Assembly (NCBI GenBank): GCA_943354005.1
Contig: CALRBE010000005.1
Span: 21,910 to 85,909 of the forward strand
Direction of reading: 5' to 3'
Length of the DNA: 64,000 bases
Source of the DNA: an uncultured Candidatus Saccharimonas sp.
GTDB lineage: Bacteria; Patescibacteriota; Saccharimonadia; Saccharimonadales; AWTP1-31
Of this stretch, positions 2,984-32,884 are shown piece after piece. Position numbers and translations under genes: made by a program. A model generated the notes under the pieces. It made no database searches and was not told the DNA's origin. It saw nothing but the letters and a program-made list of their open reading frames with translations. The stretch's first letter is position 1. The number at the start of each line of letters is the position of its first letter.

Positions 2984-3306
2984 TATTTTTCCTCGTACTT
3001 TTTAATCCGACGGCGAGCAATTGTTCCCTTCAATAGGATATTAACTAGAGATGCAATAATTGCTACTCCAACTAATAGGTAAAGACACGTGAATAGCTTT
3101 CCGAAAGTAGTTTTTGGTGCAATATCTCCATAGCCTACGGTCGTAAGGCTAACTACGCAAAAGTAGAATGAATCAACCCAAGACCATTTTTCAATTGCAT
3201 GGTAGGCCCATGTACCAAATAGTAGGGTGAAAATTGCAACTGCAGAAATAAGTCTGAACCGTTTTACTGTTAATTTAGCTTCGTCAAGATTAAATGTTGG
3301 ATCCAT
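2983..3306 (-). CDS. minimal two-TM potassium channel
   Basis: 107 aa with the canonical selectivity filter TTVGYGD between two TM helices and no RCK domain. Its stop overlaps the downstream start (TAATG). Confidence 0.8.
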   Translation of the reverse strand: MDPTFNLDEAKLTVKRFRLISAVAIFTLLFGTWAYHAIEKWSWVDSFYFCVVSLTTVGYGDIAPKTTFGKLFTCLYLLVGVAIIASLVNILLKGTIARRRIKKYEEK

Positions 3307-3344
3307 ACCTGTAAGTATACAGCAATAATGCTCTTCTCTTTTTA

Positions 3345-3818
3345 CTACTTTTTAGCTAATTCTTTAAGATCTTTAATAATTTGAGCGGCGTGTGTCACAG
3401 GATTGACTCCGAGGTACTCCTTGGCGATAAATCCATCAGGGCTAATTAGATATGTATTCCTACTAATACTTCCTTTGGTCATTCCTAGAATGGTTGTCTC
3501 CTTCCATGATCCATAAGCTTCTATTGTGGTATGCTCGGTATCGCTGAGTATCGTGAAATTAATATTATGCTTTTTCGCAAAATTTGCATGACTTGCTACT
3601 GAATCTTTGTTAACTCCTACAACAACTGCATTTCCATATTCGGCAATTGCATCTCTTTCGTCCCTAAAGTTACAAGCTTCTTTTGTGCATCCTGGAGTAT
3701 TATCTTTAGGATAAAAATAAAGAACTATCCAGCGCCCGGCAAATTCTTTAAGTGTTCTTATCTTCCCCTCTTGATCTGGTAGTGAAAATTCTGGTGCTTT
3801 TTTCATATCTTTCTCCAT
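3345..3818 (-). CDS. bcp: thioredoxin-dependent peroxiredoxin Bcp
   Basis: 157 aa. PGCTKEAC peroxidatic/resolving Cys motif in an AhpC/TSA fold pattern. Confidence 0.85.
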   Translation of the reverse strand: MEKDMKKAPEFSLPDQEGKIRTLKEFAGRWIVLYFYPKDNTPGCTKEACNFRDERDAIAEYGNAVVVGVNKDSVASHANFAKKHNINFTILSDTEHTTIEAYGSWKETTILGMTKGSISRNTYLISPDGFIAKEYLGVNPVTHAAQIIKDLKELAKK

Positions 3819-3848
3819 TATATTTTATCTTTCTGCTATAAATATACT

Positions 3849-4562
3849 ATGAATACACTACAACATGCAGATGATTTTAAAAAAATACTCTCAAGTTATG
3901 AAATGTCTACTGAATCGAAAGGGCTACTTGCTCAAACAAAGTTTGTAATGCTTTCTGCTATTAGTGCTTCCGGACGCAACACTATAATCGAAGAACTACT
4001 TAAGACGGATCAGTTTTATCCAGTAGTATCAGATACAACCAGAGAAAAACGTATAAATGATGGTATTGAAGAAGAAAGCGGTAAGCAATATTGGTTCAGG
4101 AGTGAAGAAGAAGTTTTGGAGCGATTGAATCAAGGTAAATACATCGAAGCAGCTTTAATACATGACCAGCAAGTATCAGGCCTCAGTATTGAAGAATTCG
4201 AAAAAGCAGCTCAAGCAGGGAAAATTGCTATCAGCGACCTTGAAGTGCAAGGAGTTGACGTTATTATGAAAGCCAGTCCAACCAGCATTCCTATTTTTGT
4301 CGTTCCTCCTAGTTATGATGAGTGGATGAAGCGCTGGGCCAAGCGCGGTGTAATTACTGAGACTGAAAAGCAGCATCGAATAGAAAGTGCTCAAAAAGAG
4401 TTATACACAGCGCTGCATACAGATTATTACCATTTTGTAATTAACGATGCTTTACCAGAAGTCGTACAAGATATTATAGACATTTCTCTAAATAAAAGTG
4501 TTAAGGATAAAGAAATAGCTGCTCGTAGCGTAGCAGAGAGAATACTGGATAGGCTCCAGTAA
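3849..4562 (+). CDS. guanylate-kinase-like protein with divergent P-loop
   Basis: Shows GK-like TTR..R..E..G..YWF...EE and YIEAA motifs. The P-loop reads SASGRNT instead of GxxGxGK. Confidence 0.5.
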   Translation: MNTLQHADDFKKILSSYEMSTESKGLLAQTKFVMLSAISASGRNTIIEELLKTDQFYPVVSDTTREKRINDGIEEESGKQYWFRSEEEVLERLNQGKYIEAALIHDQQVSGLSIEEFEKAAQAGKIAISDLEVQGVDVIMKASPTSIPIFVVPPSYDEWMKRWAKRGVITETEKQHRIESAQKELYTALHTDYYHFVINDALPEVVQDIIDISLNKSVKDKEIAARSVAERILDRLQ

Positions 4563-4569
4563 GGGCAAT

Positions 4570-4596
4570 TTGGCAGTCATTGACGTTAAGTGCTAA
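4570..4596. promoter_or_regulatory. CIRCE operator overlapping the hrcA promoter
   Basis: TTGGCAGTC-N9-AAGTGCTAA versus the consensus TTAGCACTC-N9-GAGTGCTAA. The left arm coincides with a -35 (TTGGCA). The right arm overlaps the -10 (TAAAAT, 4594-4599), which sits 6 nt before the ATG at 4606. Confidence 0.75.
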
Positions 4597-4605
4597 AATA
4601 TAGCC

Positions 4606-9307: not shown

Positions 9308-9952
9308 CTATATTCTGTAGGCACCCTTATTCTCAAAGTGTTGCTGCTTTTTGTTATGCAACATTTGTTTATCTGCTTCGCCTATAACGTCATGGTAGGA
9401 CGAATGTATATTTGGATCGAAAATTGCATAACCTCCTGAGATACCTATGTTATCGATACTACCGAATTCATCACGATTATACTCGTAGATTAAACTACTT
9501 GTTCTATCTATGACATTTTGAGCAATAATATGTTTTTCTTCGGTTGCTTCTGCAGTATTAAGAAGGACTATAAATTCGTCGCCACCAATCCGGGCCACTA
9601 AATCATTTTTCTTAGTGTTCTTTGCGATCATTTCTCCAACGCTCTGCAAGTAAACATTGCCGATCTCATGACCGCAAGTATCGTTTACCTTTTTAAAATT
9701 CAAAAGGTCAAAAAATATTGCAACAAAAGGCTTATCTTTTTCAACCCACTGATTTCCAATAGTTTCCACAGCATTACTATTAAGCAGTTTTGTAGTGTGA
9801 TCTATATTCGCTTCTTCTGTTTTTAGTCTTAATTCTTCTTCAAGTTGTACTACCCGGCAGACAAGTGCACCCGTAATTTTTGCCATATCGTAGGACATTG
9901 CATAAAGACGTTGTTCTTCTGGTGATTCAAAATAGTTTTGCTCTGATTCCAT
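9308..9952 (-). CDS. GGDEF-domain diguanylate cyclase
   Basis: 214 aa with an intact RIGGDEF active site. The N-terminus is coiled-coil only. Confidence 0.8.
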   Translation of the reverse strand: MESEQNYFESPEEQRLYAMSYDMAKITGALVCRVVQLEEELRLKTEEANIDHTTKLLNSNAVETIGNQWVEKDKPFVAIFFDLLNFKKVNDTCGHEIGNVYLQSVGEMIAKNTKKNDLVARIGGDEFIVLLNTAEATEEKHIIAQNVIDRTSSLIYEYNRDEFGSIDNIGISGGYAIFDPNIHSSYHDVIGEADKQMLHNKKQQHFENKGAYRI

Positions 9953-10118
9953 AGAATTACCTTAAGCAAAACCCAAGGTATAAATGTAATGCAATACAGT
10001 GGGTTCGCTATTAGCTCCGTATACCCCAAGCGACCAAATATAAGGTATACATCATTACTTACGTTACATTCGTAACTAAGCTAATTTTATACCCAATTAA
10101 ATTAATTTAAAAGTACTT

Positions 10119-11642
10119 TTATAGGTCATGTAAGACAGTTATTCGTGCACCAAGGCTGTTAAGGCGTTCTGCAATATCTTCATATCCACGATTTATGGTA
10201 TAGACATTTCGTAGCATCGAAGTACCTTTAGCGGCTAGCATTCCAATTAGTAGCAAGCTCGCTGGTCTAAGTGCCGGCGGACATACAACGTCGGCTTTAG
10301 TGAATCGAGTTGGACCGTTAATGTATATTCGGTGAGGATCCACTAGCTCAAGGTTAGCACCAATTTTTGTTAGTTCAGTGTAATATATCGCGCGATTTTC
10401 AAACATCCAGTCGTGAATTAGTGTTCTGCCCTTAGCTACTGCAGTAATAGGTACAAAATAGGGAATACTATCCGGATTTATGCCTGGCCAAAGGTTAGGA
10501 TGCAGTTTGTCTTTTGGCGCCGTAAGCCCGCCATTGTGCTTTTCGATAGTAAGATCAACAAGATCTGTAATGTTGTTTGTTGCTTTATATCGTTCGGATA
10601 TTTTATAGCGGAGCCCCATAACTTTAAGTTTATATAGTTCTAAACCTATCCAATCTATTGGAACCCGCTTAATCGTAATTTTAGAGTTCGTCGTAATTGC
10701 TGCTGAGATAAAGAACATAGCTTCGATAGGGTCTTCACTCGGTGCAAAAGTCACATTCTTTTTTATATTGGGAACTCCTGTGACTGTCAAAACAGATGAT
10801 CCAATACCTGAAATCTTAACCCCCAATTTTTGAAGGAAAAAGCACAAGTCCTGGACCATATAGTCAGCACTCGCGTTTTGAATTATGGTTGTACCATTTG
10901 TACCTGAAGCTGCAAGAAGAGCATTATTGGTAACTGTGTTGCCTGCTTCGTATAGCATTATGCGATCTGCTGTAATTCTTTTTTTAACTTTAACTTCGTA
11001 ATGCCCAGTTAATGTTCGGACGCTTACCCCAAAGTTTTCAAGCACGAGTAAGTGAGGTTCTATTGTGCGCGTACCAAGCTTACACCCACCAGCATATGGA
11101 ATATTGAAATGGTTATAGTCATGCATAAGGGAACCGATCAGCATTAACACACTACGTGTTTTTCGTGCTGAAGTGCTATTAATATCCTTAAGATTTAGCT
11201 GGGCTGGTCGTCGAATTTCGAGATCATTACCAGGCAGCCATTTTACCTTTACTCCAATACTCTCAAGTACTTCGATAATACGATTGACCTCTTCAATACG
11301 TGGGAATGCCTTGTAACGCGTTACTCCATGGTTCAATAGGCTAGCGCAAAGCAGAGCTACGGCTGCATTCTTACTAGTCTTAAGCTCAATGCTTCCGCGC
11401 AATTCATGGCCGCCCTCTATTCGTAGGTTGATACCACCCTCCCCTATCTGAATTAATGACTTATTAAGCACATCACTGATACGGCCTAATGTTTCAACAC
11501 TTAAGTTTTGTTTACCATGTTCAATACGATTAACTGCAGATTGGCTTGTCTGAAGTTGTTTTGCAAAAGCAGCCTGTGTTAGGCCCCGTTCTTGCCGTAT
11601 CTGGTAAATTAGACGACCAATTTTTTCATTTGCAGATGACAT
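10119..11642 (-). CDS. murA: XRE-type HTH domain fused to UDP-N-acetylglucosamine 1-carboxyvinyltransferase MurA
   Basis: The N-terminal ~65 aa form an XRE HTH (LTQAAFAKQLQTSQSAVNRIEHGKQNLS). The rest aligns by eye with full-length MurA (TSKNAAV, catalytic Cys in YAGGCKLGTRTIEPH, INRGYEDIAERL). The ATG at 11642 is preferred over the TTG at 11648. Confidence 0.85.
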   Translation of the reverse strand: MSSANEKIGRLIYQIRQERGLTQAAFAKQLQTSQSAVNRIEHGKQNLSVETLGRISDVLNKSLIQIGEGGINLRIEGGHELRGSIELKTSKNAAVALLCASLLNHGVTRYKAFPRIEEVNRIIEVLESIGVKVKWLPGNDLEIRRPAQLNLKDINSTSARKTRSVLMLIGSLMHDYNHFNIPYAGGCKLGTRTIEPHLLVLENFGVSVRTLTGHYEVKVKKRITADRIMLYEAGNTVTNNALLAASGTNGTTIIQNASADYMVQDLCFFLQKLGVKISGIGSSVLTVTGVPNIKKNVTFAPSEDPIEAMFFISAAITTNSKITIKRVPIDWIGLELYKLKVMGLRYKISERYKATNNITDLVDLTIEKHNGGLTAPKDKLHPNLWPGINPDSIPYFVPITAVAKGRTLIHDWMFENRAIYYTELTKIGANLELVDPHRIYINGPTRFTKADVVCPPALRPASLLLIGMLAAKGTSMLRNVYTINRGYEDIAERLNSLGARITVLHDL

Positions 11643-11655
11643 ATTCAAGTAATAT

Positions 11656-11671
11656 ATACCTTATAAGGTAT
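11656..11671. promoter_or_regulatory. perfect 16-bp palindrome (candidate operator) in the murA-glyA divergent region
   Basis: ATACCTTATAAGGTAT is its own reverse complement. It abuts the putative -10 (TATATT on the minus strand, 11651-11656), 8 nt upstream of the murA ATG. Confidence 0.5.
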
Positions 11672-11773
11672 CTATGCAAGCTTACTATGAAACTGAAAGC
11701 CTATAATGAGAACAACAAATACTAGCCTATTAGCCTGCTACCTTGTACTCTATATAGAGCAACGGAGGACATT

Positions 11774-13054
11774 ATGAAAGATATTAAAATAGCCAAACTA
11801 ATAGAAGCCGAAGAAAAGCGACAGCGCGAAGGCCTTGAACTTATCCCAAGCGAAAATTATGTTAGCAGAGACGTACTTACGGCGCTAGGCAGCGTTTACA
11901 CCAATAAGTACTCTGAAGGGTACCCAGGAAAGCGCTACTATGGAGGCCAAGAAAATACTGACATCGTAGAAGCACTAGCAATTGATAGAGCTAAGGAACT
12001 GTTCAATGGAGATCATGCAAATGTACAGCCGCACTCTGGTGCCCCTGCAAATATTGCGGTGTATCAGTCATGGCTCAATCTAGGAGATACAATTATGGCT
12101 ATGAGGCTTGATCATGGCGGTCATTTGACTCATGGTCACCCAGTTACTTCAGTATCAAAGGCTTATAACTTTGTGCGTTATGGAATGAAAGACGTTGAAA
12201 CAGGCGAGATTGACTATGATGAAATGCGGGCGATTGCACTTAAGGAAAAGCCTAAAATAATTATTGCAGGCTTCAGTGGATATACTCGCTCACTAAATTA
12301 CGATAAATTCGCTGCAATAGGTGAAGAATGCGGCGCACTTCTTATGGCCGATATGGCACATGTTGCGGGACTGATTGCAGGCAAGGCTTTACCGAATCCT
12401 TTGGATCACGGATTCCAGGTACTAACCAGTACGACGCATAAGACTTTGCGGGGACCACGCGGCGGACTCATAATCAGTAAAGGGATAGTAGGTAATTCCT
12501 TAAAAGCTCCTGAAAAGATAATTGAAAATCTACCGACTCTTATAGACCGGGAAGTATTCCCAGGATATCAGGGTGGGCCACACATGAATAATATAGCCGC
12601 TAAAGCAGTGGCATTCAGGGAGGCCTTACAGCCCGATTTTGGGGTCTATGCAAAGCAGGTGATATCTAATGCTCAGACACTAGCAAAAGCTCTTCAAGGC
12701 AAGGGATTTAAGCTAGTAACGAACGGTACTGACAACCACATGGTACTTATTGACATGCCTAAAAGTTTTAATGGAGTCAATGGTAGAGAAGCGCAAGAAA
12801 TTTTAGATATGATTGGTCTGAATGCGAACTGTAATGCAATTCCTGACGACCCACTTCCACCTTACCGTCCTAGTGGTCTACGTTTAGGCACGCCTGCAAT
12901 TACTACACGTGGGCTAAACGAGGAACACATGGGCTTAATAGCTGCTTGGATGCATGAAGCAATTACCAAGCGTAATGATCAAAATGCATTAGCCCAAATT
13001 AGAGCTGCTGTAACTGAATTTTCACTACAGTTCCCACTTCCTAGCGACCGTTAA
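11774..13054 (+). CDS. glyA: serine hydroxymethyltransferase
   Basis: 426 aa with the PLP-lysine motif TTHKTLRGPRGG. An SD (GGAGGA) lies upstream. Confidence 0.97.
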   Translation: MKDIKIAKLIEAEEKRQREGLELIPSENYVSRDVLTALGSVYTNKYSEGYPGKRYYGGQENTDIVEALAIDRAKELFNGDHANVQPHSGAPANIAVYQSWLNLGDTIMAMRLDHGGHLTHGHPVTSVSKAYNFVRYGMKDVETGEIDYDEMRAIALKEKPKIIIAGFSGYTRSLNYDKFAAIGEECGALLMADMAHVAGLIAGKALPNPLDHGFQVLTSTTHKTLRGPRGGLIISKGIVGNSLKAPEKIIENLPTLIDREVFPGYQGGPHMNNIAAKAVAFREALQPDFGVYAKQVISNAQTLAKALQGKGFKLVTNGTDNHMVLIDMPKSFNGVNGREAQEILDMIGLNANCNAIPDDPLPPYRPSGLRLGTPAITTRGLNEEHMGLIAAWMHEAITKRNDQNALAQIRAAVTEFSLQFPLPSDR

Positions 13055-14118
13055 TATTGAGATGCTTCTACTAGCTCTGGTTCTTGTTCTAGTTCAACTC
13101 CAAACTTTGTATGAACCTCTTTAATGATCCTGTTTCTGAAATGCAGTAGATCTGATGTAGATTCTGCTTTTTCATTAACTAAGACCAAAGGCTGCTTATG
13201 CCACGTAGCCATACCTGTCTTTACATCATGAAAGTTTTTGAAGCCGGCATGTTCAAGGAGCCAGGCAGCAGAAAGTTTTATTTTACCATCTTTTAGTTTC
13301 CAATGGGGGATGTGCGGATATTTTTTATGTAGGGCATTAAACTTTGTATTACTAATAATTGGGTTGGCAAAGAAGGATCCATTGTTGGCAACCGTTTTAG
13401 GATCTGGCAGTTTGCTGGAGCGAACTGCAATGACTATTTCCCGAATGATTCGGGGAGTAAATTTTTTGATATTCATGGTGTCTATATAAGTCTGCAGGGA
13501 AGGGTAAAAAGGGGGCTCGGGATTCTTATGATACAGCCTGAAGCAGAGTGCAGTGATATAGAATCGTCCTTTGTCCGTTGTTTTGAAGCGACTTGTTCGG
13601 TAGCCAAATCCACATTGATCTGCTGGAATAACAACAAATTTCTTTGAATGAGAATCGTATGCTTCGACACTAATAAGAGTATCGGCAATCTCTTGTCCGT
13701 AAGCACCAACATTCTGAACGGGAGTAGCACCTGTTGTTCCGGGAATTAAAGACAAAGCTTCGATACCATGCAGTTTATTGGCAACGGTTTTTGCTACGGC
13801 CTTATCCCAATCTTCTCCTGAGCCGATGGTAACATAGCTATGTTCGTGATCTTCTTTCTCGACTTTATATCCAATAATCTTATTGACGATTACAAGTCCA
13901 TCGAAGCCTTTGTCGCTCCATATAAGGTTACTGCCCCCACCAATCATAATTACCGGAAGCTTTCGCTCATTGGCCCAGTCTAATACGTGTGGAATATCAG
14001 ATTTATCCTTAATGTTTGTGAGGTATTTAGCTTCACCGCCGAGACGCATTGTAGAATAACGCGCCAGTGAAACATTTTTTCGAATATACATAAGCTTATA
14101 GTACTCGAGATTAGTCAT
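13051..14118 (-). CDS. murB: UDP-N-acetylmuramate dehydrogenase
   Basis: 355 aa with YSTMRLGGEA and GGGSN FAD-binding motifs, type II MurB length. Confidence 0.9.
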   Translation of the reverse strand: MTNLEYYKLMYIRKNVSLARYSTMRLGGEAKYLTNIKDKSDIPHVLDWANERKLPVIMIGGGSNLIWSDKGFDGLVIVNKIIGYKVEKEDHEHSYVTIGSGEDWDKAVAKTVANKLHGIEALSLIPGTTGATPVQNVGAYGQEIADTLISVEAYDSHSKKFVVIPADQCGFGYRTSRFKTTDKGRFYITALCFRLYHKNPEPPFYPSLQTYIDTMNIKKFTPRIIREIVIAVRSSKLPDPKTVANNGSFFANPIISNTKFNALHKKYPHIPHWKLKDGKIKLSAAWLLEHAGFKNFHDVKTGMATWHKQPLVLVNEKAESTSDLLHFRNRIIKEVHTKFGVELEQEPELVEASQY

Positions 14119-14205: not shown

Positions 14206-14775
14206 ATGAGCAAAGAAGAAGGTGTAAAAAAACCGTTTAGTGAACTTGGAGAAAAATTAAAGCTGTACAGAGAACGCCGTAAGCGTTCGCTAGCTGAAGC
14301 TTCTGGGGCTGTTGAAATTGAAGCAGCTTCTTTAGAATCTATCGAAAAAGGTGAGCGTCGTCCTGACGAAGAGATCTTATCTCTGCTTATAAGCTATTTC
14401 GAAATAGAAGAAGAGTACGCCTCTAAACTATATAGATTAGCGGGCTACAACGACTCCCTAATAGGAGGTGTTGACCAGGCGGCTTTTGATATTTCTCAGC
14501 CTATTGCAATGCTTATGCCAGTAGACCTAAGAATTGTCTACACTGACACGGCTCACGTAATGGTTAATAACTTTGGTGTTGTTATGAATTTCATGCAAAC
14601 TAACGGTAATGGCGGTCAACCGCTGGCAGTATCTAGGATAGGAATGAGTAAAGAGCATGCCCAATCTCTAATTAAAATGCTCCAACAATCCCTAAAGCAG
14701 GCAGAAAATCAAGAAGCCCCAAAGAAGCCTAGGATTAAAAAGAATACACAAGACAACAAAAAAACTGATGCATAG
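14206..14775 (+). CDS. HTH (XRE-like) domain protein
   Basis: The N-terminal LGEKLKLYRERRKRSLAEAS...IEKGERRP resembles an XRE HTH. The C-terminal part is of unknown function. Confidence 0.5.
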   Translation: MSKEEGVKKPFSELGEKLKLYRERRKRSLAEASGAVEIEAASLESIEKGERRPDEEILSLLISYFEIEEEYASKLYRLAGYNDSLIGGVDQAAFDISQPIAMLMPVDLRIVYTDTAHVMVNNFGVVMNFMQTNGNGGQPLAVSRIGMSKEHAQSLIKMLQQSLKQAENQEAPKKPRIKKNTQDNKKTDA

Positions 14776-31999: not shown

Positions 32000-32884
32000 A
32001 TGAATGAATATAGTTCCATAACAATTATTTATAATCATGTTAGTACTGGGGCGAGCGAAACGAATGCACGTGCATTCGCTAAGAAGCTTGAAAACACTAA
32101 GTACAAAGGTAAAATATCACTAATCGCTACTGAACATGCTAACCATGCCTTTAAAATTGCCAAAGATATCACGAGCCGTGAAGCCAATCCATTAATTATT
32201 TCATCTAGCGGTGACGGTGGGTACAACGAAGTGATCAACGGGGCGCTTGAGGCATCCTCAAGTAGTAATCATCCAGTAACAGGCCTGTTGCCTTCAGGTA
32301 ACGCGAACGATCATTATAACCAGCTACATAAACCATATGTAATCAAGCACATAGTAAACGGCACAACGCAGTGCATCGATGTTTTAAAAATAGAAGCACG
32401 GATAGGCGGTAAGCCTTGGCATCGCTACGCCCATTCCTATATTGGGTTTGGCTTATCTTCTGAAGTAGGGAAGGCCCTAAATGAAGTTGACCTAAATTCA
32501 ACTAACGAACTACTCATATTTCTAAAAACATTCGTAAAGAACAAACCTTTTACAATTATTGTCGGAGATCATGCACTTGAATACCAGAGCATAATCCTCA
32601 GTAACGTAGGAAAAATGTCAAAGGTCCTATCTTTGTCTAAAACGGCTCAAGTAGATGACGGACTATTCGAAATATTCACCTCAGATGCTAACGTCGTTAA
32701 ACTGATGAGTTCTCTTGTTAAATCAGTTGCAGGGATTATGGCACATGAAGCGCGAACTAAAACGTATTCATGTATAACGACTAATCCGCTCAATATTCAA
32801 TTAGATGGTGAAATATTTACTATAGATGCAGATAGTGAAATACAGATCAAATCATGTCATAAAGCTCTCTACTGCGTTATCTAG
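32000..32884 (+). CDS. diacylglycerol/lipid kinase family protein (YegS/BmrU-like)
   Basis: SSSGDGGYNEVINGAL corresponds to the DAGK catalytic GGDGT motif. TATACT lies 7 nt before the ATG at 32000. Confidence 0.65.
   Translation: MNEYSSITIIYNHVSTGASETNARAFAKKLENTKYKGKISLIATEHANHAFKIAKDITSREANPLIISSSGDGGYNEVINGALEASSSSNHPVTGLLPSGNANDHYNQLHKPYVIKHIVNGTTQCIDVLKIEARIGGKPWHRYAHSYIGFGLSSEVGKALNEVDLNSTNELLIFLKTFVKNKPFTIIVGDHALEYQSIILSNVGKMSKVLSLSKTAQVDDGLFEIFTSDANVVKLMSSLVKSVAGIMAHEARTKTYSCITTNPLNIQLDGEIFTIDADSEIQIKSCHKALYCVI

Follow-up and report, generated by a model that had tools for sequence, protein, structure and literature searches.

In a 64,000-nucleotide (nt) stretch of DNA from an uncultured Candidatus Saccharimonas sp. 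(assembly GCA_943354005.1, contig CALRBE010000005.1, positions 21,910 to 85,909; hereafter the window), the gene murA encodes a full-length MurA, the enzyme of the committed peptidoglycan step and the target of fosfomycin, fused to an N-terminal XRE-type helix-turn-helix (HTH) domain. A 16-base-pair (bp) palindrome overlaps the predicted promoter of the fused gene and is conserved at the same place in its relatives, where it accompanies the HTH and varies together with it. The product is thus probably bifunctional, being a MurA enzyme and, through its HTH, also a repressor of its own gene; the case for DNA binding, for repression and for enzyme activity alike is built on sequence comparison.

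A mechanical list of open reading frames gives the gene as 10119..11648 on the reverse strand, opening at a TTG, and this TTG was the start assumed in an earlier note made from the sequence alone (the original prediction). Conservation among orthologues supports the ATG at 11642-11640, which we take as the real start, since 80 of 80 Saccharibacteria orthologues from species-representative genomes open there with M-x-x-x-N-E-K-I-G. Initiation downstream of the HTH is not indicated, as these 80 orthologues share the ATG before it, and with no alternative start and an HTH conserved as strongly as the enzyme, the domain belongs to the protein. The two domains named in the original prediction were both recovered by a Pfam scan, HTH_3 with 54.6 bits compared to a gathering score of 23, and EPSP_synthase (PF00275) with 128 bits, residues 76-494 matching model positions 2-417 of 417. 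HTH_3 also exceeds its gathering score in distant fused homologues, eleven HTH columns are invariant among 50 Patescibacteria and Nonomuraea sequences, and the recognition-helix motif TSQSA[VI][NA]R[IM]E.G.QN is near-invariant across fused proteins. An AlphaFold2 model built on a 50-sequence alignment has a mean predicted local distance difference test (pLDDT) score of 88, with values of about 90 or more across most of the MurA body, and places N-terminal helices at residues 4-18, 23-29, 34-41 and 49-59. The roughly 10 residues joining the HTH to MurA are poorly placed in this model, with a pLDDT of about 50 at residues 61-70 and below 50 at residues 64-68.

The C-terminal 430 residues match the NCBIfam MurA subfamily NF006873 with 320.2 bits (cut-off 297), and solved MurA structures in the PDB align end to end over about 430 residues (best E = 7e-52). 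The Escherichia coli MurA reference used for numbering aligns to the window gene in the same way as the MurA chains of the PDB. The window protein retains all nine core residues (K22, N23, R91, C115, R120, D305, R331, R371 and R397 in E. coli numbering), in agreement with the original prediction, which had pointed to the Lys of TSKNAAV and the Cys of GGCKLG as signs of an intact active site; by alignment these are K91 (codon 11370-11372), equivalent to E. coli K22, and C187 (codon 11082-11084), equivalent to C115. All nine are likewise kept by 113 further fused proteins among 121 aligned database homologues of the Patescibacteria form. At the level of sequence, the window protein is thus predicted to be a catalytically competent MurA, i.e., a UDP-N-acetylglucosamine (UDP-GlcNAc) enolpyruvyl transferase. 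One homologue, P0130 (529 residues, on a 6.9-kb Logan contig), has intact MurA catalytic residues and an N-terminal extension of about 80 residues that matches no HTH model, and may be a decayed fusion.

The palindrome ATACCTTATAAGGTAT lies exactly where the original prediction had put it, 13 nt from the ATG and 8 nt from the alternative TTG. A 16-bp palindrome in a single genome is not significant alone, as the window contains two perfect ones versus 1.44 expected from shuffles, and its meaning comes from cross-genome comparison. The other perfect palindrome of the window is GAATGCACGTGCATTC at 32062-32077, and no other match to ATACCTTATAAGGTAT was found in the window, even with three mismatches.

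We therefore compared 80 species-level Saccharibacteria loci (672 kb), scoring the pattern ATAYC-N6-GRTAT on 10 positions. A perfect match is found 11-15 nt upstream of the ATG in 53 of these loci, and at least nine of the 10 positions match in 70, with only eight perfect matches elsewhere in the 672 kb. The six centre positions, which were not used in selection, are also symmetric (A/T, T/A, A/T), giving the consensus ATAyCATATATGrTAT. Moreover, among extended -10-like sites, 40 of the 53 that lie upstream of murA have the left arm, versus 15 of 431 elsewhere (Fisher p = 1e-34). A second set of 80 metagenome loci was fetched with a profile of the fused proteins; 75 of them bear the HTH and have enough upstream sequence, and the operator is present at nine or more positions in 61 of these, with a median distance of 12 nt to the start. 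It is also present in 72 of 81 Saccharibacteria loci and in all three Nonomuraea species examined. Over all groups (Saccharibacteria, metagenome relatives of the Patescibacteria form, and Nonomuraea), the operator (at least 9/10) occurs some 12-13 nt before the start in 141 of 166 HTH-bearing loci, as opposed to 2.7% of 120-nt windows drawn at random from these loci and none of five HTH-less close MurA relatives (L112, L122, L137, L171 and L172). These counts support the proposal of a conserved operator at the promoter of the gene itself, and show that the palindrome is not absent from orthologous promoters.

The operator occurs in several symmetric forms, namely ATATCA..TGATAT, ATACCA..TGGTAT, ATAGCA..TGCTAT and ATCTCA..TGAGAT, in which the two arms change together as expected of a homodimer site. 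These variants also appear to track changes in the HTH, a relation supported by raw counts at two positions: where the half-site is ATAGCA, [T/S]TQS stands at the start of the recognition helix in 13 of 15 loci, compared to TSQS in 90 of 93 others, and where it is ATCTCA, 9 of 16 loci have a His in the loop that joins helix 1 to helix 2, versus 1 of 83 others. Nonomuraea combines RQHRG with ATCTCA, and its nearest relatives combine RQ[ANS][RK]G with ATATCA or ATACCA.

The murA promoter was assigned by comparative alignment of orthologues, which, with the operator as anchor, has T-A-T-A-a-T at motif positions 13-18. The first three nt of the inferred -10 hexamer are the last three nt of the operator; an alternative -10, TATATT, is found at 11651-11656. 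With about 10 nt from the -10 to the ATG and no Shine-Dalgarno sequence, a leaderless or almost leaderless murA mRNA is predicted; divergent glyA, by contrast, has GGAGG. The short spacing between -10 and ATG is common to most orthologues. Since the operator fills the promoter spacer and overlaps the -10, it occupies the position of a repressor site.

We propose that the fused protein would bind as a dimer, its two HTH domains contacting the palindrome arms ATAYCA and TGRTAT, whose centres are 10 bp apart. Once bound, the palindrome filling the spacer and overlapping the -10 would shut out RNA polymerase, leading to less transcription of the leaderless murA mRNA. DNA binding and dimerization are here deduced from the domain and the symmetry of its site, and repression, as the sign of regulation, from the position of the operator. 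XRE regulators are typically autoregulatory dimers on palindromes (PMC12565409).

Several observations weigh against a MurA enzyme that represses its own gene. The window protein scores 301.5 bits with the MurA equivalog TIGR01072, below the cut-off of 392.7, and the equivalent of E. coli D369 (TDLRA motif) is an Ala (CPPALRPA). The same Ala is found in the Nonomuraea protein and in HTH-less MurAs of the same clade (P0122, P0124, P0125 and P0132), and because the latter have it too, it characterizes the clade and does not point to damage in the fused protein. The search for a second MurA homologue covered the 64-kb window and 4 kb on either side in the 80 loci, and found none there. The murA promoter escapes a consensus promoter scan, since its -35, TTGCAT, agrees with TTGACA at three of six positions. 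Furthermore, an extended -10 (TGnTATAAT) includes the right arm of the operator, leaving only the left arm and the symmetry as features that a promoter alone would not explain, and the co-variation figures ignore shared ancestry. MurA is usually monomeric, and its dimerization on DNA is an assumption. Finally, no structural coupling between HTH and MurA can be read from the AlphaFold2 model, given its low-confidence linker.

Additional information comes from fused proteins that have lost catalysis. A small derived clade (P0126, P0133, P0138 and P0286-P0289) lacks R91, C115 and R120, and mostly also R371 and R397, and the same catalytic losses are seen in other distant fused proteins (P0143, P0146, P0166 and P0171). 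All of these pseudoenzymes still match HTH_3 or carry the conserved recognition-helix motif, and they keep a full-size MurA-like domain in which D305 and R331 are retained. The operator is kept at five of the seven pseudoenzyme loci examined and is gone in L085 and L086. In L082 and L084 the pseudoenzyme gene is divergent from a plain murA-murB pair, in L083 a plain murA and a Mur ligase gene lie on the opposite strand, and in all three loci the pseudoenzyme gene heads Ddl or Mur-ligase genes, with the operator in the short shared divergent intergenic region. The plain MurA beside the pseudoenzyme is itself unusual (PGIIQA, YENGL). The pseudoenzyme paralogues are likely pure regulators derived from the enzyme. 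Since the HTH is retained, with the operator at five of seven loci, despite lost catalysis, the regulatory role seems to have been selected independently of catalysis, and a regulator outliving catalysis indicates that this role is real and suggests that the MurA-like body serves as a sensor.

Taking up the ligand response raised in the original prediction, we speculate that the ligand state of MurA, open or closed and involving UDP-GlcNAc, phosphoenolpyruvate or the feedback inhibitor UDP-N-acetylmuramic acid (UDP-MurNAc), may set the affinity of the HTH for the operator, so that the precursor pool would control murA; this we advance tentatively, as a possibility of some weight. A plain homeostatic autorepression, in which the operator is bound whatever the ligand state, the fusion caps the MurA level and the MurA domain is an enzyme and perhaps a dimerization scaffold but not a sensor, is to our mind rather unlikely. 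It agrees with the single operator per locus, at the gene's own promoter, in the window and flanks, and with the AlphaFold2 model, in which the linker is of low confidence and no contact of the HTH with the active-site cleft is evident. On the other hand, the full-size MurA-like domain of the dead paralogues, with D305 and R331 in place, fits a ligand sensor better than a scaffold, those of L082-L084 adjoin plain murA and precede Mur-ligase or Ddl genes, and the enzyme-repressors BirA, PutA and NadR are ligand-controlled.

Three further explanations would remove one part or another of an autorepressing MurA. If the palindrome were promoter architecture only, with the extended -10 of murA mirrored by the -10 of divergent glyA, the HTH could serve, e.g., for protein contacts as in RodZ. 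The right arm TGRTAT followed by AAT indeed makes TGnTATAAT, in 79 of 80 Saccharibacteria loci the gene upstream is a divergent glyA, and the sequence flanking the left arm is often rich in T/A, which can make the opposite strand resemble a -10; however, the operator persists where the upstream gene is co-directional (Nonomuraea, L087 and L088, and Saccharibacteria L002, L005 and L066), the pairs ATCTCA/TGAGAT and ATAGCA/TGCTAT vary symmetrically and leave a left arm no longer -10-like, HTH residues co-vary with operator class, and the palindrome is missing from all five HTH-less relatives, making this explanation very improbable. We give equally little credence to the palindrome being the site of a separately encoded regulator, such as the HTH_31-DUF3467 protein (14206-14775), with the fused HTH binding elsewhere. 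Although synteny of the gene of this protein with murB, glyA and murA extends to 61 of 80 Saccharibacteria loci and to L087, the operator accompanies the fused gene also where this neighbour is missing (Nonomuraea, L082-L084), its presence tracks the fused HTH (141/166 versus 0/5) and its class tracks the residues of that HTH. The window protein could also itself be a pseudoenzyme regulator, with the real MurA encoded elsewhere in the genome, and such paralogues do occur in related lineages; the missed TIGR01072 cut-off and the Ala at 369 would fit. Yet the nine core residues are intact, just as they are in the other 113 fused proteins and in those MurAs of the clade that have no HTH but likewise carry Ala 369, identity across Saccharibacteria is 72-97%, and neither the window nor the flanks of the 80 loci hold a second homologue, and we consider this the least credible of the explanations.

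The survey of MurA architectures in relatives that the original prediction had suggested showed that the HTH fusion is widespread in Saccharibacteria and other Patescibacteria lineages. Both domains are present in all of the best 120 database homologues listed (75-97% identity), and searching 50%-identity representatives, along with a second search that was word-indexed, extended the distribution to fused proteins of about 500-510 residues with the source names Paceibacterota, Parcubacteria, Liptonbacteria, Taylorbacteria, Colwellbacteria, Doudnabacteria and Patescibacteria group. The fusion is also found in the actinomycete genus Nonomuraea, as a 90%-identity cluster of 246 members that is 54% identical to the window protein. 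Three Nonomuraea species of about 70% G+C carry the AT-rich ATCTCATATGTGAGAT at 12-13 nt before the start, where it overlaps the end of an upstream gene read in the same direction. The Nonomuraea fusion always stands between a Formyl_trans/ECH_1 fusion gene and a phage-type integrase, and its nearest relatives are in metagenome loci (L144, L153, L157, L161, L165, L169 and L170; 64-66% identity). This distribution suggests horizontal transfer between Patescibacteria-like organisms and Actinomycetota. The G+C content of the fused gene (68%) matches the host. The fusion is already in public databases, named UDP-N-acetylglucosamine 1-carboxyvinyltransferase (NCBI, JGI) or in some cases helix-turn-helix domain-containing protein (UniRef or NCBI), and we found no description of it in the literature, as full-text searches returned no paper describing an HTH-MurA fusion or its operator. 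PMC8871954 treats murA for its synteny only.

In function, the fused protein is closest to the enzyme-repressors BirA, PutA and NadR and to autoregulatory XRE repressors, and in sequence to canonical MurA. BirA, the biotin protein ligase and bio-operon repressor of E. coli, is the classic enzyme-repressor, in which the state of the catalytic site governs binding to DNA. It likewise is an enzyme with an N-terminal DNA-binding domain that sits as a dimer on a promoter-overlapping palindrome, but it has a winged HTH instead of an XRE-type domain, belongs to another enzyme family and controls the bio operon and not its own gene; moreover, ligand dependence is demonstrated for BirA and proposed for HTH-MurA. 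PutA and NadR, trigger enzymes sensu Commichau and Stuelke, also combine an enzyme and a transcriptional repressor in one polypeptide, and PutA represses its own gene, but PutA uses a ribbon-helix-helix domain, NadR has an HTH fused to a nicotinamide mononucleotide adenylyltransferase and a kinase, and both act in other pathways. The trigger-enzyme feature, a competent active site and a DNA-binding domain in one polypeptide, is present in the sequence of the window protein. We know of no trigger enzyme of the PutA/NadR type for peptidoglycan synthesis, and our literature searches found none for this pathway.

Canonical MurA (E. coli, Enterobacter cloacae and others; PDB 1UAE, 1NAW and 5UJS) aligns end to end with the window protein and has the same nine catalytic residues, but lacks a DNA-binding domain, whereas the window protein adds a 72-residue N-terminal HTH and linker, has Ala at D369 and scores below the TIGR01072 cut-off. 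Known control of MurA is post-translational, through feedback by UDP-MurNAc and, in Firmicutes, ClpCP/ReoM proteolysis, and to our knowledge there is no case of MurA itself acting at DNA. Repressors of the XRE/Cro/CI type (434 Cro, SinR and HipB/HigA-type antitoxins) share the HTH_3 fold and a palindromic operator of about 14-16 bp at their own promoter with half-sites one helical turn apart, but carry small C-terminal dimerization or sensor domains where HTH-MurA has a complete, catalytically intact enzyme. The window HTH also matches the N-terminus (residues 6-65) of the NCBIfam model PRK08154, annotated as a regulator of anaerobic benzoate catabolism, with 26.9 bits, far below the cut-off of 204. 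Members of PRK08154 carry an XRE-type HTH fused to a shikimate-kinase-like domain, which would be a comparable fusion to a different enzyme domain, from a neighbouring pathway, although this architecture is not visible in our scan; the family is not known to have been characterized, and we found no evidence of a shared origin beyond a generic HTH. MraZ, the regulator of the dcw cluster, is similar in being a conserved, cluster-encoded DNA-binding protein that controls peptidoglycan-precursor genes (cited in PMC8871954), but differs in that it is not an enzyme, adopts another fold, recognizes direct repeats and is not known to regulate murA.

The order murB-glyA-murA is kept in most Saccharibacteria loci, and the convergent genes glyA and murB overlap by 4 nt at their 3' ends (13051-13054). 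The original prediction had noted that the palindrome lies in the region shared with divergent glyA; shared control is not indicated, as a gene inserted between the two leaves the operator in place at 12-14 nt from murA. A wider regulon was not found, the nine other 9/10 matches in the window being close to the background rate of the loci. Over all loci, 194 sites match the operator pattern versus about 50 expected, 108 of them at fused-gene promoters and part of the remainder a coding artefact at +143 to +158. A second operator inside the gene was considered at this position, where ATATCAGCCTTGATAT occurs at a fixed place in L144, L153, L157, L161, L165, L169 and L170 and not in the window gene; it coincides with the conserved peptide N-I-S-L-D-M, which accounts for it, and probably arose by chance from the coding sequence.

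The 10-nt sequence TATAAGGTAT, proposed in the original prediction as a half-site upstream of the downstream GGDEF gene, does exist, at 10039-10048 and not 10036-10045, but is not an operator half-site. As a second operator it was rejected, having no partner arm and lying inside an aptamer that resembles the cyclic di-GMP (c-di-GMP)-II riboswitch, where ATACC and GGTAT pair as the strands of one RNA stem. Just 2 of 80 loci have the GGDEF gene after murA. Full-length matches to this aptamer (RF01786) in the window and four Saccharibacteria loci score 46-51 bits with E values between 1e-9 and 5e-7, slightly short of the 53.5-bit gathering threshold, and look like a divergent c-di-GMP-II riboswitch class in Saccharibacteria that would control a c-di-GMP synthase. 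The coordinates of all features are collected in Table 1.

Table 1. Features of the fused murA gene, its promoter and surroundings in the window, and related features in other loci (locus handles given before their coordinates).
Feature	Position	Strand	Basis or remark
HTH-MurA fusion coding sequence, 507 residues	10119..11642	-	ATG 11642-11640, stop 10119-10121
XRE-type HTH_3 domain, residues 12-63	11454..11609	-	Pfam; predicted recognition helix TSQSAVNRIE
Short linker between HTH and MurA, about residues 61-72	11427..11462	-	AlphaFold2 pLDDT; MurA alignment from residue 72-73
Full-length MurA domain, residues 73-503	10134..11426	-	Family profiles, structure alignment, residue check
16-bp palindromic operator ATACCTTATAAGGTAT	11656..11671	.	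Family consensus ATAYCATATATGRTAT
Inferred -10 hexamer TATATA	11653..11658	-	Register where orthologues show TATAAT
Inferred -35 TTGCAT, weak	11674..11679	-	Orthologue TTG about 16-17 nt upstream of -10
Gap between -10 hexamer and ATG, 10 nt, without Shine-Dalgarno sequence	11643..11652	-	Sequence
Pseudoenzyme paralogues	L082 3001-4503; L083 3001-4506; L084 3001-4530; also L085, L087, L088		
Nonomuraea spp. fused genes	L081 4001-5530; L089 3001-4530; L090 about 3070-4599		Catalytic residues intact
glyA	11774-13054	+	Divergent from murA
murB	13051-14118	-	Two genes from murA
HTH_31 + DUF3467 gene	14206-14775	+	Second small regulator of conserved block
c-di-GMP-II riboswitch-like aptamer (RF01786), full-length match	9989-10069	-	47.2 bits, gathering score 53.5, E = 1.3e-9
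GGDEF diguanylate cyclase gene	9308-9952	-	Directly downstream of aptamer match
Further RF01786 full-length matches	L001 5574-5656; L002 8824-8903; L005 8907-8984; L068 8872-8951		

The fused MurA offers a concrete and inexpensively testable example of gene regulation in Patescibacteria, a very large, little-understood group with few recognisable regulators, and would add a member in an essential pathway to the small class of enzyme-repressors represented by BirA, PutA and NadR. The consensus ATAYCATATATGRTAT together with the co-variation of HTH and operator provides ready predictions of binding specificity. Moreover, the series from a bifunctional enzyme to a likely pure regulator, a pseudoenzyme beside a plain murA, illustrates how a sensor domain can evolve from an enzyme. 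If ligand sensing is true, HTH-MurA would be a transcription factor sensing cell-wall precursors, apparently ancient, present in many Patescibacteria lineages and apparently passed to Nonomuraea, and in the pseudoenzyme lineages the precursor pool would also control murA-murB and Mur-ligase genes.

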